DNA of 64,000 bases from contig JAADGG010000041.1 of assembly GCA_013152485.1 (NCBI GenBank), positions 30,791 to 94,790 on the forward strand, read 5' to 3'. This DNA is from Nitrospirota bacterium. GTDB taxonomy: Bacteria; Nitrospirota; Thermodesulfovibrionia; Thermodesulfovibrionales; JdFR-85. The translations under genes were made by a program, and so were the position numbers. Positions 11,011-46,352 of the stretch are shown piece after piece; position 1 is the stretch's first letter; the number at the start of each line of letters is the position of its first letter. The notes beneath the pieces are model-generated. The model saw nothing but the letters and a program-made list of their open reading frames with translations, had not been told where the DNA came from and ran no database searches.

Positions 11011-12666
11011 GTGAGCGAGCCACTTTACATAATACCACTTGGCGGCGTCGAAGAGGTGGGAGGGTTGAACATGACCGTCCTGCAATACGGCGACGACATG
11101 ATAGTCATCGACGCAGGTCTGATGTTTCCCGAGGACGAGATGCTCGGCATCGACTTCGTAATCCCGGACTTCACCTACCTGCTCGAAAACCGAGACAAGC
11201 TCAGGGCGATAATCATAACACACGGACACGAAGACCACACAGGGGCCCTACCCTTTCTCATCAGGGAACTCGACGGAACCGTACCAGTATACGGCACGCC
11301 GCTTACACTCGGCCTTCTCAGGAACAAGCTCTCCGAACACAGGATCTCAACGCCGTTTCATACCGTAAAACCGAGGGACACGGTGAGGCTCGGGGAATTC
11401 ACGGTTGAGTTCGTCCGTGTAACGCACAGCATCGTCGACGGCGTGGGACTCGGAATCAGCACGCCGTATGGGCTGGTCGTCCATACGGGCGACTTCAAGA
11501 TCGACCCGACCCCTGTAGACGGTGAACTGCTCGACTTCCACAAGTTCTCCGAATACGGCGACAGGGGAACACTGCTGCTGATGTCCGACAGCACGAACGC
11601 AGAGAAAGGAGGTTTCACGTACTCTGAAAAAGAGGTCAGGAGGGTCTTCGAGGACATCTTCTCCTCCGCACCCGGCAGGTTGATAATAGCCACATTCGCC
11701 TCCAACATACACAGAATCCAGCAGGTGATCGATGTGGCGGTGAAGTACGGAAGGAAGGTGGCCCTGTGCGGCAGAAGCATCGTATCGAACGCACAGATAG
11801 CCCTCGACCTCGGCTACCTGAGGCTTCCGGAAAAGACATGGCTGAACCTCGAAGAGATACACACGCGGCCTGACAGGGAAGTGACGATAATCACGACCGG
11901 CAGTCAGGGAGAACCGATGAGTGTTCTGTCGAGGATAGCAACCGGGGAACACAAGACCATAAAGATCGGCCCCGGAGACACCGTCGTGCTCTCCGCAAAG
12001 GTGATACCGGGCAACGAACGCTCGATCGGCAAGATAATAAATCATCTGTTCCACAGGGGGGCGAACGTGATCTACGAAAAGGTCTCCGAGGTCCACGTCT
12101 CGGGTCATGCGTCAAAGGAGGAACTGAAGCTGATGCTCAATCTCGTGAGGCCGACGTACTTCATGCCCGTACACGGCGAGTACAGACACCTCGTCTATCA
12201 CTCAAAGCTCGCCGAGAAACTGAACATTCCCAAGGAAAACATATTCATAATGCAGGATGGCGACATCCTGGAGATCAACGGCGAGGGGGCCAGGAAGAAC
12301 GGAAAGGTCCACTCCGGCAGGATATTCATCGACGGCAAAGGAGACATTGAAGATGTCGTCCTGAGGGACAGGTGGCGACTCGCCCATGACGGCATAGTGC
12401 TCGTCATCCTGTCCATGGAGAAACCGTCGGGCCGCATAACCTCGGGCCCCGACATAGTATCGAGGGGCTTCATTTTCGAGGAGGCCTCGCCGGAGGTGAT
12501 CGCCGAGGCGAAAAAAGTGGTCGCCGACACCATAACAGGGCTCGATGCCGAACTGCTCCAGGACCTCACGCTCATGAAGGCCAGGATCAGGAACACTCTC
12601 AAGAAGCATATATACAAGACCATGAATCGCAGACCCATGATAGTGCCGATCATATTTGAAATATAG
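11011..12666 (+). CDS. rnj: Ribonuclease J
   Basis: The metallo-beta-lactamase motif ITHGHEDHTGALP and the beta-CASP body are present, and the length of about 550 aa fits. GTG start. Confidence 0.9.
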   Translation: MSEPLYIIPLGGVEEVGGLNMTVLQYGDDMIVIDAGLMFPEDEMLGIDFVIPDFTYLLENRDKLRAIIITHGHEDHTGALPFLIRELDGTVPVYGTPLTLGLLRNKLSEHRISTPFHTVKPRDTVRLGEFTVEFVRVTHSIVDGVGLGISTPYGLVVHTGDFKIDPTPVDGELLDFHKFSEYGDRGTLLLMSDSTNAEKGGFTYSEKEVRRVFEDIFSSAPGRLIIATFASNIHRIQQVIDVAVKYGRKVALCGRSIVSNAQIALDLGYLRLPEKTWLNLEEIHTRPDREVTIITTGSQGEPMSVLSRIATGEHKTIKIGPGDTVVLSAKVIPGNERSIGKIINHLFHRGANVIYEKVSEVHVSGHASKEELKLMLNLVRPTYFMPVHGEYRHLVYHSKLAEKLNIPKENIFIMQDGDILEINGEGARKNGKVHSGRIFIDGKGDIEDVVLRDRWRLAHDGIVLVILSMEKPSGRITSGPDIVSRGFIFEEASPEVIAEAKKVVADTITGLDAELLQDLTLMKARIRNTLKKHIYKTMNRRPMIVPIIFEI

Positions 12667-12683
12667 GACTGATATTCTATAAT
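12655..12683 (+). promoter_or_regulatory. Sigma70-like promoter of the cytochrome operon
   Basis: TTTGAA (12655-12660), a 17-nt spacer, then TATAAT (12678-12683), 27 nt upstream of the ATG at 12711. The -10 lies inside the perfect palindrome TATAATATTATA (12678-12689). Confidence 0.45.
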
Positions 12684-12710: not shown

Positions 12711-13721
12711 ATGAAACCGAGGTTGCTGCTGATAACAGCCCTCCTGCTGGGGTTGAGCATCGTGTACGCGTGCACTGAGCTGAAGAGGTCCAAGCCAATC
12801 CTGCCGCTGAACGAGTATGAGAGGATGATAGCCGGACGTCTCGATGCCGACTATGTCGGAACCGAGACCTGCCTGGCGGCATGTCATGCCCACGACGCGA
12901 TAAAGGCCGCCTTCGACGCAAGCACAATGGGGACACAGCTGAGGAGGGAATCCGGGCTACCTCTCGTCGACTGCGAATCATGCCACGGCCCCGGGAGCCT
13001 GGCGATCAAGGGGATAACCCGGGAGCTCGTCGAGGAAAACAGCAGGAAAGGCATAAAGACGGAATGCAACTACGAGACCCTGATCGACATAAAGAACCTG
13101 CCCGCGATCGCAAAGAGCCTCATCTGTCTCAAGTGCCACACCGGCAACGCCACGTTCAACCTTCACGAATGGAACGCAGGCGTTCATGCGGTAAACGACG
13201 TCTCATGCTCAGACTGTCACGACATACACGAAGGAGCCGACCTGAAGGTGAAACCGAAGGATACGGCAGCCATGTGCCTCGACTGTCATCAGGAGATCAC
13301 GGCCTACTACAGGATGCCGAGTCACCATCCAGTGACCGAGGGAAAGGTCTACTGCACCGACTGCCACAATCCCCACGGCACGTCGACGGAGAAACTCCTC
13401 AGAAAGGCCAGTGTCAAGGAGACGTGCACCAGGTGTCACGGGGAGAAAGAAGGCCCCTTCCTCTACGAGCATGCCGATCTGACGGATGACTGCTTGAACT
13501 GCCACATGCCGCACGGCTCCCCGAACAACAATCTGCTCACCTTGAGGGAACCCTTTCTCTGCCTGCAGTGCCATCAGAGCCACAGGATAAACACCGCCAC
13601 CGGCGAACCGAAGACCACCGCATTGAAAGGGTTTTTCTTCACCAGGTGCACCAACTGCCACAGCCAGATACACGGCACCGACATACCATCGCCCGGGGGC
13701 AAGGGAAGGTTCATCCAATGA
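12711..13721 (+). CDS. Decahaem c-type cytochrome, DmsE/MtrA family-like
   Basis: Ten CxxCH motifs: CLAACH, CESCH, CLKCH, CSDCH, CLDCH, CTDCH, CTRCH, CLNCH, CLQCH, CTNCH. The N-terminal signal ends IVYAC. The C-terminal block GPFLYEH..CLNCHMPHGSPNNNLL..CLQCH..FTRCTNCHSQIHG is typical of MtrA/DmsE. Confidence 0.85.
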   Translation: MKPRLLLITALLLGLSIVYACTELKRSKPILPLNEYERMIAGRLDADYVGTETCLAACHAHDAIKAAFDASTMGTQLRRESGLPLVDCESCHGPGSLAIKGITRELVEENSRKGIKTECNYETLIDIKNLPAIAKSLICLKCHTGNATFNLHEWNAGVHAVNDVSCSDCHDIHEGADLKVKPKDTAAMCLDCHQEITAYYRMPSHHPVTEGKVYCTDCHNPHGTSTEKLLRKASVKETCTRCHGEKEGPFLYEHADLTDDCLNCHMPHGSPNNNLLTLREPFLCLQCHQSHRINTATGEPKTTALKGFFFTRCTNCHSQIHGTDIPSPGGKGRFIQ

Positions 13722-15679
13722 CCAGGAGCCGGACTGCAACAGGAAGAGGAAAGGCACGCTGCGGACTCATCGTGCTGCTCGTGATAGTGGTCCTTACCGC
13801 CCCTGCACGCGAGATACTGGCAGAGGACGGGAGCAGGCAGGCATACAGTCCCGGCTACTCCCTGGGAGCCGGATACAACTGGACCGGACTCGACGGCTCC
13901 AGAAGGGTCATAGAGTACAGCTCAGGGGTCAAGTCACCAGTCCTCGGCGCGGACATCGAGGTCTACCCCCTGCCCCACAGGCTGTATCTCGATCTCTCAA
14001 CCCGTGAAAGAGACGACCTCTACCTCGACACGGGATATGCATACAAGGAGGTCCTCCTGTCGAGATTCATTGCTCGAGGACTCACCCACAACCTCGACCA
14101 TTACGTACTGCCGGCCTCAGACCCTGATGAGGCCACGAGGAAATACAGGGACCGAGACACGAACGCTTCCTACCAGACGGACGTCACGACAACCGACCTG
14201 TTTCTCAGACTGAAGACCCCGGACTATCCTTTCCACCTCTTCGGCAGGTATTTCGGTTATGACAAGGAGGGCACCGTTCAACAGCGGTTCCTCGTGGGAT
14301 ACTTCAACGACATGACAGTAACTTCCCGGAGCAGGCGGATCGACTTCAGGACCGAGGAGCTGACCATAGGGTCGAACGGCCACTTCGGACCTCTGGAGGT
14401 GGAATACACCCATGGCGAGAAGAGTTTCGTTCCAGCCGGCCCCAAGGTTCTCGAAGACCTGTATCCCGCAACCGCTCAAAGACCAGAGGACGTATATCCA
14501 CACAACCTGGTGCCCGAAACGCGCACGTCGTCGGACTATATCAGGGCGCATTCATCCTACACGGGACGCATAACGGCCTCGGCATCGTTCGGCAGCATCA
14601 GGCAATCAAACCAGGACAGCTCCGTGGAGAGGACGATTATCGTCGGCGCCGGACAGCTGGCGTTCATCCCCATGGACGCACTCTCCTTCTTCCTCAGATT
14701 CCGTTACAGGGATCTCGATGAGGAGGGCCCCGGGACCACCGTGCTCAGGGGACAGAGCAATGAACTGGCATACAAGGTCCGCCCGTCCCTCGACACAAGA
14801 CAGAGGGAGATCTCACTGTGCATCAGGACGCGCCCATCGAGGGGCGTAAACCTTGCGGGCAGCTACTCCGTCGGCAGAAAAGACCTCTCGGACACGGAAG
14901 AGTGGTTGCTGGCCGACAGGAACACAACGGTCAACACCTTTGAGTTCAAGGCTTACGGGACGGTGTTGAAGGGAGCCAGGTTCAGGACGACCTACAAATA
15001 CACCGACCTCAAAAACCCGCTCTACAACACCGACCCGGACACCTCTCACGAACTCGATCTCTACGCAAGCTACACACTGACCCCCGGGGTCTTCACCGTT
15101 CTGACCTACAAGCTCAGGAAGGAGAGGCGCGACAACCTCAGGTTCATCAACACGCGGACGGAAACGCCTACCGAAACCGGACAGAGAGACAACACCTTCC
15201 ACAACGTACTGGGTCTCCTCGTGCTGACTCCATGGGAAAGAACATCCGTCACCGTGTCATGCGGATACTACAAGAACGGCCTGCGACAGACTCTGCTTTA
15301 CTCCACATTCCTCGGTGACGGCTCCTCTGAACCCGGGGAACCGATTGCAGAAGACGGCGTACCCTACAGTGACGAATCCACATCCTACTCTGTCGGGATA
15401 ACACACAGGTTCAACGACAGAACCGACGTCTCTGCAGACATGGGACAGACATTCTCGAAAGGCAAGTTCCGGACCGAGAATACGCTGGCCGAAAGCATAT
15501 CATCCTTCTCCATGCTGAGGGTGACGGAGACGGCCCTGTCGATAAAGGGCAGGCACGAGATGAACAACGGATTCGGCATCGAAACGGTTCTCGGTCTGAG
15601 AGACTACAACGACCGTACAGACGACCAGAACGACGGCAAATTCTATCAGGCCATGCTGATCCTGACAAAGAGGTGGTAA
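13718..15679 (+). CDS. Large outer-membrane beta-barrel, MtrB/PioB-like (cytochrome-associated porin)
   Basis: The start at the internal ATG 13718 overlaps the cytochrome stop (ATGA). It has a signal peptide (..LLVIVVLTAPAREILA), a 653-aa Tyr/Arg/Asp/Thr-rich sequence with alternating pattern, and a terminal ..LILTKRW aromatic end typical of OMPs. Confidence 0.6.
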   Translation: MTRSRTATGRGKARCGLIVLLVIVVLTAPAREILAEDGSRQAYSPGYSLGAGYNWTGLDGSRRVIEYSSGVKSPVLGADIEVYPLPHRLYLDLSTRERDDLYLDTGYAYKEVLLSRFIARGLTHNLDHYVLPASDPDEATRKYRDRDTNASYQTDVTTTDLFLRLKTPDYPFHLFGRYFGYDKEGTVQQRFLVGYFNDMTVTSRSRRIDFRTEELTIGSNGHFGPLEVEYTHGEKSFVPAGPKVLEDLYPATAQRPEDVYPHNLVPETRTSSDYIRAHSSYTGRITASASFGSIRQSNQDSSVERTIIVGAGQLAFIPMDALSFFLRFRYRDLDEEGPGTTVLRGQSNELAYKVRPSLDTRQREISLCIRTRPSRGVNLAGSYSVGRKDLSDTEEWLLADRNTTVNTFEFKAYGTVLKGARFRTTYKYTDLKNPLYNTDPDTSHELDLYASYTLTPGVFTVLTYKLRKERRDNLRFINTRTETPTETGQRDNTFHNVLGLLVLTPWERTSVTVSCGYYKNGLRQTLLYSTFLGDGSSEPGEPIAEDGVPYSDESTSYSVGITHRFNDRTDVSADMGQTFSKGKFRTENTLAESISSFSMLRVTETALSIKGRHEMNNGFGIETVLGLRDYNDRTDDQNDGKFYQAMLILTKRW

Positions 15680-15704: not shown

Positions 15705-16610
15705 ATGGTCCTTCTCTCTCTTCTTGCAGGGACAGTCCATGCTGCAACAAAGGACAAGATTGTCGCGGGCGTGGTGTTCTCGGGCGACCTGCCCTTTTAC
15801 AGGGAGATACACGAGGAACTCGTCAGGGAACTGCTCGAGAAGGGATACGACAAGCGGGTCCGCTTCATCATCCAGAGACCCAACCCGGATGCACTCGCAT
15901 GGAGCAACGCCATCAGAAAGATGATCGCCTACGACGCCTCCCTCATAATAGTTTACGGCTCGGGAGCCGCACGTGCGGCGCTCTACGAGTCCTCCTCGGT
16001 TCCGATCATTTATGCCGCGGTGTATGAACCTGAGAGATCCGGCATAACGGGCAAGAACATCAGGGGAGTCGGGTACAAGGTCCCCGTATCCAGCATAATC
16101 CGCTACCTCAGGAAGACCGGTGAGATAAAGAGGATAGGAGTCCTGTACTCGGATTCCGAACCGAGTACCAGGACCCAGTACATGGATGTAAAGAACGTCT
16201 GCAAGAATCTCTCCATAGATGTGGTGAAGATACCGATAAAGAGGCCGAGAGAGATAGGTCAGAGACTGAGACTCATGTCCTATGACAGTCTCCTGCTTAC
16301 GAGCAGCGCACTGATAAACAAGTACTTCCCCGACTACATCCTCGTCTTCAGGAAGAAACCGGTTCCTCTGGCCACGATAATAAAGGGACTCGAAGAATAC
16401 TCCGTCATCACGCTCTCCACCGACCCGCGCAAGCAGGGGGCCGTACTGGCCAGGAACCTCATCAAGTTCATAAACAACGGCGAGATAGGCAGCATAGAGA
16501 ACACCGCGCTCCTCAAGAACTCCCTCACGTTCAACATGCGTCTTGCGATAGACCTCGGGCTGGACATACCGGTGGAGCTCCTTACGGAGTCTGACAGGGT
16601 GATCAAGTAA
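15705..16610 (+). CDS. Periplasmic substrate-binding protein (ABC_sub_bind / PF04392-like), orphan
   Basis: A short signal peptide is followed by KIVAGVVFSGDLPFYREIHEELVRELLEKGY..LIIVYGSGAARAA, which matches the PF04392 layout. There is no permease or ATPase nearby. Confidence 0.7.
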   Translation: MVLLSLLAGTVHAATKDKIVAGVVFSGDLPFYREIHEELVRELLEKGYDKRVRFIIQRPNPDALAWSNAIRKMIAYDASLIIVYGSGAARAALYESSSVPIIYAAVYEPERSGITGKNIRGVGYKVPVSSIIRYLRKTGEIKRIGVLYSDSEPSTRTQYMDVKNVCKNLSIDVVKIPIKRPREIGQRLRLMSYDSLLLTSSALINKYFPDYILVFRKKPVPLATIIKGLEEYSVITLSTDPRKQGAVLARNLIKFINNGEIGSIENTALLKNSLTFNMRLAIDLGLDIPVELLTESDRVIK

Positions 16611-17500
16611 TGAAGAAGGTCCTTGCCATAGCCGTGCTGAGCTGCTTCGTCCTCCTCTCTCTATCGACGAGGACGGATGCGGACGATATGGAGCTGCTGA
16701 TAGGGCTCATCCCCGAGCAGAACATCTTCAAGCAGATAGAGAGGTACAAACCCCTCGCCGCCTACCTGTCCGAGAGGACGGGGATAAGGGTCAGGCTGAC
16801 GATACTGAGCCGCTACGGCGACATCATAGACAGGTTCGTCCAAAGGGGTCTCGACGGCGCGTTCTTCGGAGACCTGACAGGGGCCCTCGCCATAGAGAAA
16901 CTCGACATAGAGCCGCTTGTACGTCCGGTGAACATGAACGGTTCGACCTACTCGTACGGCTACATAATCGTCAGGAAAGACAGCGGGATAAGGAGTGTGG
17001 CCGACATGAAGGGCAAGGTGTTGGCCTTTGTGGACAGGGCGACCGTGACAGGTTACCTGTTTCCACTGTCCTACTTCAGGTCTCACGGGGTGGCGAACCT
17101 CGAGGGATACTTCTCGGAATACTACTTTACGGGCAGTCACGATTCCTCTGTCTATGCCGTGCTCGATGGAAGGGCGGACATCGGCTGCATAAAGAACACC
17201 ATATTCAACAATCTGGTCTCCAGGGATCCGACGATCAAGGAAGAGATACGGATCATTGCGAAATCCCCCCTGATGCCCGAGAGCACACTCTGCCTGAGGA
17301 GGGACCTTCCGGAAGGCATCAAGAAGATGATAAAGGAAGTGCTCTTGACCATGGACAGGGACCGGGAGGGCCGCAGGATCCTCGCAAAGCTGCACGCGCA
17401 GAGGTTCATCGAGGCCTCGGTCGAAGACTTCAAGCCCGTTTACGAGATGCTGAAGACACTCGGAGAGGATATAGAAACATACCAGTACAGGGTCAGATGA
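16610..17500 (+). CDS. PhnD-like periplasmic binding protein (PF12974-like), orphan
   Basis: A signal peptide is followed by LLIGLIPEQNIFKQIERYKPLAAYLSERTGIRVRL. One-nt TAATG overlap with the upstream gene. Confidence 0.7.
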   Translation: MKKVLAIAVLSCFVLLSLSTRTDADDMELLIGLIPEQNIFKQIERYKPLAAYLSERTGIRVRLTILSRYGDIIDRFVQRGLDGAFFGDLTGALAIEKLDIEPLVRPVNMNGSTYSYGYIIVRKDSGIRSVADMKGKVLAFVDRATVTGYLFPLSYFRSHGVANLEGYFSEYYFTGSHDSSVYAVLDGRADIGCIKNTIFNNLVSRDPTIKEEIRIIAKSPLMPESTLCLRRDLPEGIKKMIKEVLLTMDRDREGRRILAKLHAQRFIEASVEDFKPVYEMLKTLGEDIETYQYRVR

Positions 17501-17528
17501 AGGAATCCCGAACGCCGGAGCTCCACAG

Positions 17529-19505
17529 ATGCGGAAAAAAATAACGCAATACCTCTTGACCATCTTCCTGCTCTTCGCCCTGAGCGGTGGAATAGCGATA
17601 ACGGCCCTGTCCCAGGTCACAAAGGATCTGAACAGCCTGATAACCCTCCACAAGGTAGAGATCATTCGTCAGAACCTCGTCATCAACCTCCAGACCGTAC
17701 AGACCAACCTTTACACGATAGGGACGTCCTTCGGTCCCGACCTGGACGTGATCGTCGACAACGTAAACTCCCTCGACAAGGCGATAACGAGCTGCACGGG
17801 CTGCCACCACAGCGCGGCACTCACAAAGAAACTGACGCGGCTGAAAAAATTCACCGAAAAGTACAAGGAGGCGCTCAGCGCCTTCATAACCACGACCGCC
17901 AATCCCGAACGCGTGAAGAGGCTCCAGATGGCAACGGCGGAAATAGGTGAGATGTTGCTGCAGAGCACACGCGAGATGGCCTTCATCACGAATCAGAAAC
18001 TCAAGGAAAAGTCTGCAACGGCACTGCGCGAGGTCGAACGCATCAAGTGGATACTGCTTGCAAGCCTGTTGGGCATAATGCTCACGGGCTGCATCATTGC
18101 GGTAAACCTCACGAGCGAGATACTCAAGCCCATAAGAGAGCTCTCCGATGCTGCGAGAGAGGTTGCCTCGGGCAATCTCGGCTACACGATAGACACCTCC
18201 GACACCACGGAGTTCGGGCATCTCGCAAGGGTGTTCAACGAGATGAGCCTGTCGCTGAAAGAGAGTCACGAGCGCAGCATGAAGTACATGATGAGACTGA
18301 GCGGACTGTACAGGCTCACCCTCTCCTTCCACATGGTGACCAACGAGCAGGACATCATCAGGGAACTGGTCTTCGGGGTGGCCGAGATCATAAAGGCCGA
18401 GAAGGTGCTCGTCTTCCTGTACAACAAGGAGAAAGACCGGTATTTCTCGGCCTTCCCGGCATACGGATTCACAGACGGTGACATAGAGAACTGGTCCTAC
18501 GAGCCTTCCTTCATAAACAGCATCTATCTCAAAAGCAACAAGAGGTCCATGATAATCCATCCGGAAGACCGCATGGCGAAACAGCTCCTCTTCCGGGCGA
18601 CCGGCGTGCGTAACCTCGCCGTGATATGGCTGAAGCAGAAAGGCGTGCTCACCGGCTTTCTGCTGAGCATAAACAAGGAGGGAGAAGGGTTTACGGAGGA
18701 AGACATCCGGCTGCTCAGCATAATAGCAAACAACTTCTCCGTTGCGATGGACAACGCACAGCTGTACAGGGACCTCCACACCCAGATGCAGAAACTCAAG
18801 GACACACAGGAACAGCTTGTCCAGGCGGCAAAGCTCGCTGCCATAGGCGAGCTCGCAGCAAACATCGCCCACGAGATCAACAATCCCCTGACGAGCGTAC
18901 TCGGCTATGCCGAACTGATGAGGGAGGAGGAGGACATAGAGAGCATAATGAGGGATCTCGAGATCATAGAGTCCGAGTCGCTGAGGGCAAGGGATATCGT
19001 CCAGCAGCTGCTCGAGTTCTCGAGGAAGTGGCCTCTCAAGATAGGCAAGGTGGACGTAAACAGGCTGCTCAAGGACGTCATGGATCTCGTCTCCATCAAC
19101 ATCAAGAACTCCGGGATCGACATAACGACGGATTTTTCGGACCTGCCCGAGATAAACGCTGATGCAAACCAGCTCAAACAGGTCTTCCTCAACCTCATAA
19201 ACAATGCCATACAGGCAATGCCCGAAGGCGGCACGCTCTCGCTCAGGACGGCAAAGGTGGACAACTCGGTGATCATAGAAGTCTCCGACACGGGCACCGG
19301 CATTCCGGACAACGTAGCACAGAAGATATTCGAACCCTTCTTCACGACCAAAAGAGACAAGGGGACCGGGCTGGGGCTTCCGATAAGCTACAGGATCATA
19401 AAAAAGCACGGCGGGAAGATCGAGGTGAAAAGCAGGGTGGAGAGAGGCACCACGTTCAGGGTGATACTGCCGGTCAGGATGTCTTCTTTACAAATATCTC
19501 CTTAG
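17529..19505 (+). CDS. Sensor histidine kinase (TM - helical periplasmic domain with CxxCH - TM - HAMP - GAF - HisKA - HATPase)
   Basis: The H-box is AHEINNPLTSVLGYAELM. N, G1 and G2 boxes are present (LINNAIQAM, DTGTGI, GTGLGL). CTGCHH lies at aa 89-94 between two TM segments. No receiver domain. Confidence 0.85.
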   Translation: MRKKITQYLLTIFLLFALSGGIAITALSQVTKDLNSLITLHKVEIIRQNLVINLQTVQTNLYTIGTSFGPDLDVIVDNVNSLDKAITSCTGCHHSAALTKKLTRLKKFTEKYKEALSAFITTTANPERVKRLQMATAEIGEMLLQSTREMAFITNQKLKEKSATALREVERIKWILLASLLGIMLTGCIIAVNLTSEILKPIRELSDAAREVASGNLGYTIDTSDTTEFGHLARVFNEMSLSLKESHERSMKYMMRLSGLYRLTLSFHMVTNEQDIIRELVFGVAEIIKAEKVLVFLYNKEKDRYFSAFPAYGFTDGDIENWSYEPSFINSIYLKSNKRSMIIHPEDRMAKQLLFRATGVRNLAVIWLKQKGVLTGFLLSINKEGEGFTEEDIRLLSIIANNFSVAMDNAQLYRDLHTQMQKLKDTQEQLVQAAKLAAIGELAANIAHEINNPLTSVLGYAELMREEEDIESIMRDLEIIESESLRARDIVQQLLEFSRKWPLKIGKVDVNRLLKDVMDLVSINIKNSGIDITTDFSDLPEINADANQLKQVFLNLINNAIQAMPEGGTLSLRTAKVDNSVIIEVSDTGTGIPDNVAQKIFEPFFTTKRDKGTGLGLPISYRIIKKHGGKIEVKSRVERGTTFRVILPVRMSSLQISP

Positions 19506-20133
19506 CTATGTCTATATCGATCGCCACGGTGGTCTCGTCGACCTGGACCACAACCGAAGGCCATTTCTGGAGGAGCTTCAGGGTGGAGCCTGCATTTATG
19601 CCTATGGAGTTCAGTCTGTTCAGTCGTGACGGGTCGGACGGCACTATATAGACTATCCTGCCCTTTTGCCCCACCTCGAAGTCTGCAAGCCTCACGACCA
19701 GCGGCTCCACATCCACCTTGTACTTCTTGCAGCACTCTCCCCTCGGAATCGGCTTGTCATGAGGACACGTGGGGGGATGGCCGAGGAAGGTACAGACGCT
19801 GTCGGTCAGTTCCTTGCTCAGTATATGCTCCATCTTGCAGGCATCCTCGTGTATGTACTCCTCCTTCATCTCGAAAACGTCTGCAAAGAGCCTTTCGGCA
19901 AGCCTGTGTCTGCGCACCACGCCCCTGGCTATCTCCTTGCCCTCGGGGGTGAACTTCACGTCTTCGCCGTCGACGGTTATGAGCCCCCTCTTCTGCAGCT
20001 CGGCTATGGTCTTCTCTATGCCCTCATCGTCGGAGCAGCCCTTGAGGCGTTTCAGTCCGCCCTTCTCCTCTTCTTCCAGGACCCAAAGGAGCTCCAGCGC
20101 CTCTTCCAGCCGTTCCTGATCCATCGTCTCCAT
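19474..20133 (-). CDS. DtxR/MntR-family metal-dependent repressor with C-terminal FeoA (SH3-like) domain
   Basis: VRRHRLAERLF and metal-site residues (HEDACKMEH) are present, with a C-terminal FeoA-like LADFEVGQKGRIVYI. The 3' end overlaps the kinase 3' end by 32 nt (convergent). Confidence 0.85.
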   Translation of the reverse strand: METMDQERLEEALELLWVLEEEEKGGLKRLKGCSDDEGIEKTIAELQKRGLITVDGEDVKFTPEGKEIARGVVRRHRLAERLFADVFEMKEEYIHEDACKMEHILSKELTDSVCTFLGHPPTCPHDKPIPRGECCKKYKVDVEPLVVRLADFEVGQKGRIVYIVPSDPSRLNRLNSIGINAGSTLKLLQKWPSVVVQVDETTVAIDIDIAKEIFVKKTS

Positions 20134-45170: not shown

Positions 45171-46352
45171 TCACACATCATAACGCCTCGTGCCTCCGTA
45201 ATCCCGGTGAGCATCGTAAATCTCCCTGAACATCCTGGCCGAGTCCTTGAAAGCCTCGAGCACATGCGGGTCGAAATGTTCGGGCCTGGTCCTCGTATCA
45301 CCGACGGTCAGTATGTTTACGACACTCTCGTGATCCAGCACGGGCTTGTAGGGCCGCCTGCTCCTCAGTGCATCATACTGGTCGACGATGTTCATTATCC
45401 TCCCGGATACCGGAATCTCTTCCCCCATCAGACCGTTCGGATAGCCGCCGCCGCTCCACCTTTCGTGATGGGTGAGGGCTATCTCCTCGGCCATCTTCAG
45501 ATAGGGGGACTTCGAGTTGCTCAGGATCTTTGCTCCTATGACGGTATGGGTCTTGACCAACTCCCATTCCTCGGGCGTGAGCCCCTCCTGCTTGAGAAGG
45601 ACACGGTCTGGAACACCCACCTTGCCGATGTCGTGCATCGGCGAGGCGTAGTAGATGGTCTCGATATATTCCTTGCTCATGCCGAGAGCAGATGCGAGCT
45701 CCTTTGCGTACAGACTGATCCTCTTTATGTGGGCGCCGCTGTCTTCGTCCTTGTACTCAGAGGCGAGGGTAAGGCGGTAAACCGTCTCCACATAGCCCGT
45801 CTTGATCCTCCTGTAGACCTTCTCAAGCCTCTCGAAGGCCCACTCGAGGGCTTTTATCCTCGTCGCCACCTGTTCCTCGAGCACCTGTTTGTGCTCTCTG
45901 AGAAAGTCGCGGCACTCCTTGAGCTTCAGCAGGTTCTTCACCCTGAGCGTAAACTCGATTGAGTCGAACGGCTTTACGAGAAAGTCGTCAACCCCCTTTG
46001 CAATGCCTGCCCGTCGTTCCAACGGGGAATCACAGACTGAAAGGACAACGATCGGAATGTGTTCGGTCAGCTCACTGGACTTCAGCCTCTCCACGATCTC
46101 GAATCCGTTCATGCCCCGCATGGTTACATTCATGAGGATAAGGTCCGGCAGGTACTGGAGAGTATGTTCAAACGTCTCATAGGCATCCTTCGCCACTATG
46201 GTTTCATAACCGTGGTCTTCACAGAATGCCTTCAAGAGCTTCACGTCCTTTTCATCATCGTCAACAATGAGGACCCTGAATACCTTCTCCCTATGGTTCA
46301 ATCCTGTTTTCACTATCCCCCCCTCAAAGGATCTCTTAGAAAGTTCACGCAC
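45171..46352 (-). CDS. Response regulator with HD-GYP phosphodiesterase domain (RpfG family)
   Basis: The receiver has [19 protein letters not shown]. The output domain has HDIGK and [14 protein letters not shown]. Confidence 0.9.

Follow-up and report, generated by a model that had tools for sequence, protein, structure and literature searches.

A sensor histidine kinase of 658 amino acids (aa), encoded at 17529..19505 (+) of a 64,000-nucleotide (nt) stretch of a Nitrospirota genome (Thermodesulfovibrionia; assembly GCA_013152485.1, contig JAADGG010000041.1, positions 30,791 to 94,790 of the forward strand), carries the c-type haem attachment motif CTGCHH in its periplasmic domain. We refer to the whole stretch as the window and count positions from its first letter. 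We propose, with a probability that we put at roughly 0.6, that this kinase is a new haem-c redox or ligand sensor, in which haem would be attached covalently to a four-helix-bundle scaffold and which would sense together with a periplasmic binding protein encoded beside it. The proposal draws on the invariance of the CxxCHH motif across a large family of sensors, on the predicted fold, and on the recurrence of the binding-protein gene next to the sensor gene.

The haem motif and its conservation

The earlier note on this DNA, made from the letters alone, had reported the motif at aa 89-94 (nt 17793-17810), between two transmembrane (TM) segments, and translation together with hydropathy reproduced these positions exactly (codons TGC ACG GGC TGC CAC CAC). 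What defines a haem-c site in sequence is the histidine that immediately follows CxxC. The protein begins with MRKK and its HAMP domain starts at aa 196, immediately C-terminal of TM2 (Pfam and hydropathy), which makes residues 29-172 periplasmic. Topology, on which the note had been ready to see its claim refuted, thus places the motif in the periplasm, and the sensor domain shows the arrangement expected of c-type cytochromes, a CxxCH within an exported periplasmic segment. Outside TM2, C89 and C92 are the only cysteines of the kinase.

One CxxCH per 140 aa has a chance expectation of about 4e-5 to 3e-4, and since chance CxxCH motifs do occur across a whole proteome, conservation was the deciding test. 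With only the periplasmic domain as query, an exhaustive profile search returned 250 cluster representatives (clusters at 50% identity) at E <= 1e-3 and 199 at E <= 1e-10; among the best 150 of these 250 matches, which were listed, the matched stretch lay at residues ~30-172 in nearly all cases. Word-indexed homologue searches gave three and then 16 mostly fragmentary relatives, the first three all with C-x-G-C-H-H. The retrieved set of 152 proteins, composed of the best 150 of the 250 profile-search matches and two short relatives from the word searches, contained C-x-x-C-H-H in 151 cases, the exception being a fragment of 92 aa that is too short to reach the motif. When 137 N-terminal regions were aligned, C89, C92, H93 and H94 were conserved at 100%, followed by R47 (96%) and H41 (95%), then by L40, E44, L50 and Q58 (about 91%), Y112 (90%) and M150 (80%). 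The same two cysteines and two histidines were the sole invariant columns among 77 full-length members, which are 21-50% identical to the window protein except for one close orthologue at 88%. Furthermore, all 118 sensor ORFs (open reading frames) that a hidden Markov model of the domain found in 115 fetched loci and the window carried CxxCHH (118/118). Conservation of CxxCH had likewise been set beforehand as a test that could refute the claim; the motif proved invariant, second histidine included, in orthologues as well as in distant relatives, and this invariance across the family shows that CTGCHH is not a chance occurrence.

A modular and so far unannotated sensor family

In the family as a whole the sensor domain is a modular N-terminal input (aa ~30-172) behind one TM segment. 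Pfam scanning of the 77 full-length members found HAMP after the sensor in 76, and the outputs, of kinase, hybrid-kinase or GGDEF/EAL type, comprised HATPase_c (54 members), HisKA (53), receiver (22), GGDEF (10) and EAL (7), with PAS domains in many; the window kinase itself, in which both the HisKA phospho-acceptor and the HATPase_c domain are matched, is a class I (HisKA type) kinase. Public names, looked up for 20 cluster representatives, were 'HAMP domain-containing protein', 'PAS domain S-box-containing protein' or similar. The sources recorded for the genome loci were Nitrospirota metagenome-assembled genomes (MAGs), one 'Deltaproteobacteria' MAG and unclassified bins. Judged by these sequence searches, the domain defines a sizeable sensor family (~250 clusters at 50% identity) that is so far unannotated. 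No description of a four-helix-bundle haem-c sensor with CxxCHH and a PhnD-type partner was found in the searchable literature; periplasmic haem-c sensors are a known kind, and what is new here is the four-helix-bundle version with its invariant CxxCHH and its PhnD-type partner. Some of the Geobacter transducers with haem motifs may belong to this family.

Two other assignments were considered. One relative carries a label from JGI (Joint Genome Institute) as a NarX-like nitrate sensor, and this assignment was rejected because no NarX-type model matches. The perchlorate system PcrS/PcrP was judged unrelated.

Predicted fold and candidate haem pocket

The earlier note had described the periplasmic domain as helical, and AlphaFold2 (56-sequence alignment; predicted local distance difference test score, pLDDT, 88.5; predicted template modelling score, pTM, 0.75) agrees, predicting an all-helical domain with four helices at aa 26-63, 72-90, 96-121 and 126-177. 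In this model the long helices 1 and 4 (38 and 52 residues) extend into TM1 and TM2, the short helices 2 and 3 have 19 and 26 residues, C89 occupies the final turn of helix 2, and C92-H93-H94 form part of the helix 2-3 turn. Because the helix 2-3 hairpin is short, the motif is positioned at the hairpin end and against the long helices 1 and 4. The top Foldseek matches in the PDB were periplasmic four-helix-bundle sensor domains at 10-15% identity, with no haem protein among them, namely the ligand-binding domain of Vibrio Vc1313 (template modelling score 0.73-0.77) and the sensor of the Anaeromyxobacter kinase Adeh_2942 (0.73-0.78) (8bsa, 4k0d); further neighbours were the LytS sensor in complex with the binding protein XylFII, KinB, NarQ and Tar. 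Model and Foldseek matches thus agree on a four-helix bundle of the up-down type, which is placed between TM1 and TM2 and whose helices 1 and 4 lead into the membrane. The domain matched none of the curated four-helix-bundle families (4HB_MCP, TarH, NarX-like) in Pfam and NCBIfam; searches of Pfam, NCBIfam and PDB sequences gave just chance coiled-coil or sub-threshold matches and no curated family, and Pfam at E <= 1 returned nothing for aa 1-204.

Four residues that are nearly invariant, H41, E44, R47 and M150, appear to lie level with the motif, as judged from helix register and weak covariation. By the same helix register and a few pairs in a weak and noisy covariation signal (mutual information with average product correction, MI/APC), His41 would be level with the helix 2-3 turn and Met150 within about one to two turns of it, which makes these two the candidates for axial ligands (Table 1).

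A gene for a PhnD-like binding protein is the family-wide partner

Gene neighbourhoods were compared in 25 genome loci, almost all from Nitrospirota/Thermodesulfovibrionia MAGs, in nine independent look-up contexts, and in 80 metagenome loci of other subfamilies, which were found with a subfamily alignment. In the window a gene for a PhnD-like periplasmic binding protein of the Pfam family PF12974, here called SBP2, lies 28 nt upstream of the kinase gene. A PF12974 gene directly upstream, on the same strand and with a gap of -3 to 169 nt, was present in 22/24 genome loci, 5/9 look-ups and 50/63 metagenome loci that could be assessed, and it lay directly downstream instead in one more look-up and two more metagenome loci. 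This upstream gene, absent from the earlier note, is thus the family-wide partner of the sensor, found in about 80% of assessable loci. The nearest solved structures of SBP2 are PtxB, ArrX, AioX and PhnD, some of which are co-receptors dedicated to a sensor. The partner binding proteins are 42-84% identical to SBP2 (median 47%) and share invariant motifs resembling PhnD-family anion-binding loops; this level of sequence identity, kept beside very divergent sensors, suggests one conserved ligand.

A second gene in the window, upstream of SBP2, encodes an orphan periplasmic binding protein of family PF04392, here called SBP1. Window ORFs and Pfam matches revealed no ABC permease or ATPase gene in or near the cluster, and SBP1 and SBP2 look like dedicated sensor co-receptors rather than transport components. 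The SBP2-kinase pair therefore has the composition of the AioXSR type, an adjacent PF12974 gene with no ABC permease or ATPase. The likeness extends further in the wider family, where a sigma-54 regulator follows the sensor gene in 11/51 loci, in an aioXSR-like layout.

Some single loci may be mentioned here. In L014 (9069-14395) two pairs of a PhnD-like binding protein and a haem-sensor kinase stand in tandem, the second directly after the first, which indicates that the pair duplicates as a unit. In L030, L031 and L034, which represent other subfamilies, a pair of binding protein and sensor kinase is followed directly by a sigma-54-dependent response regulator, and multihaem cytochrome genes are located a few kb away. 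L005, whose sensor region is 88% identical to that of the window, is a natural operon deletion variant: everything from the cytochrome to most of SBP2 is lost, a 28-aa SBP2 remnant persists at L005:5446-5661, and the kinase is kept, between RNase J and a DtxR-like gene.

The earlier note had further supposed that the kinase reads the electron conduit with which it is encoded, and this could be upheld in part. In the window SBP1 is preceded by genes for an MtrA-like decahaem cytochrome and a candidate outer-membrane barrel, and the order cytochrome-barrel-SBP1-SBP2-kinase was kept down to about 30% barrel identity among the 25 genome loci; where at least 4.5 kb of upstream sequence was available, Nitrospirota loci contained the cytochrome in 15/18, the barrel in 16/18 and SBP1 in 17/18 cases. 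In the wider family, on the other hand, multihaem cytochromes or barrels were nearby in only 2/20 and 0/20 loci, and SBP1 in 1/20. The link to an MtrA-like cytochrome and porin is thus limited to the Nitrospirota subfamily, and that the kinase monitors the conduit is a reasonable supposition locally but not the logic of the family.

Proposed mechanism

Cytochrome c maturation systems need little beyond the CxxCH motif, and the decahaem cytochrome gene in the same operon implies that the cell has such a system. Since the CxxCH is invariant and exported, and the cells produce multihaem cytochromes, the domain most likely carries covalently attached haem. The sensor domain would accordingly be matured into a mono-haem c-type cytochrome, in which Cys89 and Cys92 would form the thioether bonds and His93 would bind the iron on the proximal side. 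We place the haem where the short helices 2 and 3 have their lower end, packed against helices 1 and 4, the long pair leading into TM1 and TM2. Its iron would be six-coordinate; the distal ligand is likely to be His41 of helix 1, or else Met150 of helix 4. When the oxidation state or the axial ligation changes, helix 1 could then shift against helix 4, and the shift would be transmitted through TM2 and HAMP to GAF and the kinase core. Other haem-c sensors (DcrA, GSU0582/GSU0935) reportedly undergo redox-linked ligation changes. DcrA is proposed to sense redox potential and oxygen. We infer that in the present kinase, too, the haem serves redox or ligand sensing, and in the form that we favour the sensor would respond to the redox poise of the cytochromes in the periplasm. 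SBP2 may provide a second input and, by analogy with AioX-AioS, TorT-TorS and XylFII-LytS, would dock on the bundle as a ligand-loaded co-receptor, so that the module could combine 'oxyanion present' with 'periplasm reduced/oxidised'. The kinase would probably control, or be tuned by, the MtrA-like conduit through an unlinked response regulator.

A bolder version of this scheme, which we hold to be possible though doubtful, would make the haem c (CxxCHH) four-helix-bundle domain and its PhnD-type partner a hitherto undescribed class of extracytoplasmic sensor that acts as a coincidence detector for a respiratory oxyanion and redox poise, with the second histidine in a new role and with the whole wired to an MtrAB-like conduit in Thermodesulfovibrionia. 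A CxxCHH motif in tetrahaem cytochrome c3 uses its second His to ligate a neighbouring haem, and by analogy His94 might ligate a second haem, either on the other side of a dimer or within a partner cytochrome.

Several observations weigh against the proposed haem sensor with its co-sensing partner. The invariant His94 is not accounted for by a simple mono-haem site, and the AlphaFold model holds no cofactor. Compensatory loss of H41 versus M150 was not seen among the 137 aligned regions, both being absent in 1/137 where 1.4 would be expected. The sequence fits redox sensing and gas or ligand sensing alike. About 20% of loci are without an adjacent binding-protein gene, so that the partnership is not obligate, and the conserved sensor residues were the same with and without that gene (n = 10), with no surface patch lost; this comparison thus gave no signal for docking. 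No response regulator gene adjoins the cluster in the window. Finally, the ~100 weaker matches beyond the best 150 could include relatives without the motif.

Alternative explanations

The alternative that holds up best, though on balance unlikely, is that the haem-c domain responds not to redox poise but to a diatomic or other small ligand (NO, CO, O2 or sulfide) which displaces a weakly bound distal residue, in the manner of the Cache_heme NO sensors, DcrA or cytochrome c'. All the evidence for haem binding counts equally for such a sensor, Met150 is a well-conserved residue of the weak, displaceable ligand type, and cytochromes c', the class II haem proteins built as four-helix bundles, are textbook gas binders. 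The characterised family of periplasmic haem-c sensors binds NO. On the other hand, the near-invariant His41, level with the motif, suggests a strongly bound bis-His low-spin site that would be ill-suited to gas, and both the oxyanion-binding-protein partner and the local electron conduit point to respiratory or redox physiology.

Considerably less probable is a domain that carries haem without using it as the signal input. Its bundle would then be a membrane-anchored cytochrome or scaffold, and the ligand-loaded PhnD-like protein would be the sole switch, as in the AioX/AioS type. That the binding-protein gene is the most consistent neighbour, that its product, with the median identity given above, is more conserved than the sensor domain, and that for the kinases of its relatives AioX and ArrX the binding protein suffices as ligand sensor would all agree with this view. 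However, the roughly one-fifth of members that lack the adjacent gene keep every conserved residue of the haem pocket, and the haem site would lie against the membrane-leading helices, which is where four-helix-bundle sensors signal.

Least likely of the three, and very improbable given the canonical motif and its location, is a domain without haem in which Cys89, Cys92, His93, His94 and perhaps His41/Glu44 form a metal site (Fe, Zn, Cu or an As(III) thiolate) or a thiol/disulfide switch: two cysteines and two or three histidines are a plausible metal ligand set, the invariant second histidine is unnecessary for haem attachment, and a DtxR-type repressor gene is convergent downstream in many Nitrospirota loci, but an invariant His after CxxC in a Sec-exported segment is the textbook substrate motif of cytochrome c maturation, the host makes multihaem cytochromes, two adjacent histidines would be sterically poor co-ligands of one metal together with CxxC, and the DtxR neighbour is confined to the Nitrospirota subfamily and lies on the opposite strand.

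Comparison with known sensors

The likeness to DcrA and to the Geobacter sensors that the earlier note had drawn holds as a functional analogy but does not extend to the fold, the present domain being all-helical and without a Cache_heme/DUF3365 match (the family of GSU0582, GSU0935 and Tll0287). The Cache_heme/DUF3365/Tll0287-like sensors (GSU0582, GSU0935, Tll0287 and the NO-binding receptors of Pseudomonas) resemble the window family in their periplasmic position between two TM segments, their strict CxxCH, their HAMP domain and their varied outputs. They differ in having a Cache/PAS-like alpha/beta fold with a helical insertion, in place of an all-helical four-helix bundle; the window family further has its invariant CxxCHH and its usual PhnD-like partner, and a partner of this kind is not described for Cache_heme. 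Cache_heme was absent from the 25 most frequent of the 31 Pfam families matched in the 77 members. The all-helical model and the lack of a Pfam match thus place the sensor domain outside the Cache_heme/DUF3365/Tll0287 family. The haem motif of DcrA is CHHCH. DcrA of Desulfovibrio vulgaris, the first haem-c sensor, shares with the window kinase covalent haem c (predicted for the latter), a periplasmic domain, a two-TM transducer architecture and an anaerobic host, but it is a methyl-accepting chemotaxis protein described as PAS-type.

By fold the closest counterparts are the sensor domains of Tar, NarX/NarQ, Adeh_2942 and Vc1313, which likewise lie between TM1 and TM2 and have long helices 1 and 4; they differ in that they bind small molecules without a cofactor, and they share no Pfam model with the window domain. 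The placement of one haem at one end of an up-down bundle recalls, as a textbook analogy only, the class II cytochromes c (c', c556) and cytochrome b562. In those proteins two neighbouring antiparallel helices supply the axial ligands, one from its N-terminal part and the other, opposite it, a His from its C-terminal end. In the class II cytochromes, however, CxxCH lies near the C-terminus, on helix 4, and not at the end of helix 2 as in the window sensor, and they are soluble electron carriers or gas binders and not receptor domains. Membership of class II is not borne out either, as the Pfam model Cytochrom_C_2 did not match the sensor domain and was not among the 25 most frequent Pfam families of the 77 members.

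With respect to the partner protein, the nearest parallels are AioX-AioS-AioR, ArrX-ArrS-ArrR, TorT-TorS and XylFII-LytS, in which a dedicated binding-protein gene also stands beside the kinase with no transporter genes. SBP2 shares family PF12974 with AioX and ArrX, the sensor of LytS has the four-helix-bundle fold, and some members of the window family share the aioXSR layout, with a sigma-54 regulator directly downstream. The AioS sensor domain, by contrast, is listed as sCache-like, and it is the window kinase's own sensor that carries a haem motif; we know of no haem in the kinase sensor domains of AioS, ArrS, TorS or LytS. PhnD-like domains also occur fused, in TtrS and ThsS. Elsewhere, proteins of family PF12974 act as sensors of respiratory oxyanions, AioX of arsenite and ArrX of arsenate.

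To our knowledge, periplasmic haem-c sensors have so far been known from a single fold, the Cache/PAS-like fold of DcrA, the Geobacter sensors and Tll0287. It took preprints of 2026 to identify those sensors as a large family that binds NO. If the present proposal is true, a haem-c sensor has also been built on the second major fold of extracellular sensors, the four-helix bundle, and the input domain of ~250 clusters named just 'HAMP' or 'PAS' proteins went unrecognised. The family would then offer a handle on periplasmic redox sensing in uncultured anaerobes, Nitrospirota/Thermodesulfovibrionia and others, and on the regulation of their extracellular electron-transfer conduits, and it would point to a conserved signal, an oxyanion, to which the partner binding protein responds. 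Engineered two-component biosensors could also profit from a redox-responsive domain of about 145 aa that is both compact and modular.

The five-gene cluster and other features of the window

The five genes that end with the kinase gene lie on the + strand and are tightly packed, with ATGA overlaps and gaps of 25-28 nt; their coordinates are given in Table 1 together with those of the kinase domains.

Table 1. Positions of the kinase, its domains and candidate haem ligands, and of the other members of the five-gene cluster
Feature	Residues (aa)	Position (nt)	Strand	Basis or remark
Sigma-70-like promoter candidate, TTGAAA-16-TATAAT, upstream of the cluster		12656..12683	+	Consensus match only (11/12); such sites in the region not above shuffle expectation
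MtrA-like decahaem c-type cytochrome, first gene of the cluster		12711..13721	+	Pfam Paired_CXXCH_1 and NrfB-like
Outer-membrane beta-barrel candidate (653 aa), putative porin partner of the cytochrome		13718..15679	+	Weak match to NCBIfam NF041027 (GSU2204 family)
SBP1, orphan periplasmic binding protein, ABC_sub_bind (PF04392)		15705..16610	+	Pfam
SBP2, PhnD/PtxB/AioX-type periplasmic binding protein, Phosphonate-bd (PF12974)		16610..17500	+	Pfam, E = 1.7e-62
Sensor histidine kinase: TM1, haem-c four-helix bundle (predicted), TM2, HAMP, GAF, HisKA, HATPase_c		17529..19505	+	
TM1	~8-28	17550..17612	+	Kyte-Doolittle hydropathy
Periplasmic four-helix-bundle sensor domain	29-172	17613..18044	+	AlphaFold2 model, Foldseek
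His41 codon (CAC), candidate distal haem ligand, helix 1	41	17649..17651	+	95% in 137 sequences, 99-100% in loci set; putative role
CTGCHH, c-type haem attachment motif and invariant second His	89-94	17793..17810	+	C-terminal end of helix 2 / helix 2-3 turn
Met150 codon (ATG), alternative candidate axial ligand or haem contact, helix 4	150	17976..17978	+	80% in 137 sequences, 96-100% in loci set; putative role
TM2	~173-195	18045..18113	+	Kyte-Doolittle hydropathy
HAMP	196-244	18114..18260	+	Pfam, E = 3.5e-13
GAF	~272-408	18342..18752	+	PF01590, E = 2e-5, slightly over gathering score
Transmitter, HisKA and HATPase_c	440-499 and 545-650	18846..19478	+	Pfam, E = 3.8e-16 and E = 4e-30

The cytochrome has ten haem motifs, nine CxxCH and one CxxxCH (CLAACH, aa 54-59), and in a phmmer search it matched PDB 6r2q chain A at E = 2e-41. 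The search table calls this chain 'Cystathionine beta-synthase', a name that does not suit a protein with ten haems; the chain is presumably MtrA from the MtrCAB complex of Shewanella, and the name is probably a mislabelling. The start of the barrel gene overlaps the stop codon of the cytochrome gene (ATGA). The window barrel gave neither a Pfam nor a PDB sequence match and may represent a divergent porin family. In L034, a more distant member of the family where the order is a further cytochrome, MtrA-like cytochrome, MtrB_PioB (PF11854), PF04392, PF12974, kinase and sigma-54 regulator, the gene at the barrel position matches MtrB_PioB, which supports the reading of the window barrel as a porin. 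When the cluster is set beside conduits of the MtrAB/PioAB type, the cytochrome resembles MtrA, and MtrB_PioB is matched only by the equivalent gene in L034.

Elsewhere in the window, a receiver fused to an HD-GYP-type HD domain is encoded at 45171-46352 (-); it was the sole receiver among the window ORFs scanned, and no kinase gene was identified beside it, the neighbouring ORFs having been scanned in part. Convergent with the kinase gene, at 19474-20133 (-), lies a gene for a DtxR-family metal-dependent repressor with a C-terminal FeoA domain; the 3' ends of the two genes overlap by 32 nt, and the convergent DtxR-type gene is retained in many Nitrospirota loci, so that the conduit operon may have a tie to iron or manganese. 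An antisense ORF of 638 aa (17493-19409, -) spans nearly all of the kinase gene, and long antisense ORFs also overlap the neighbouring genes; the one opposite the kinase gene is most likely a compositional shadow and not a gene.

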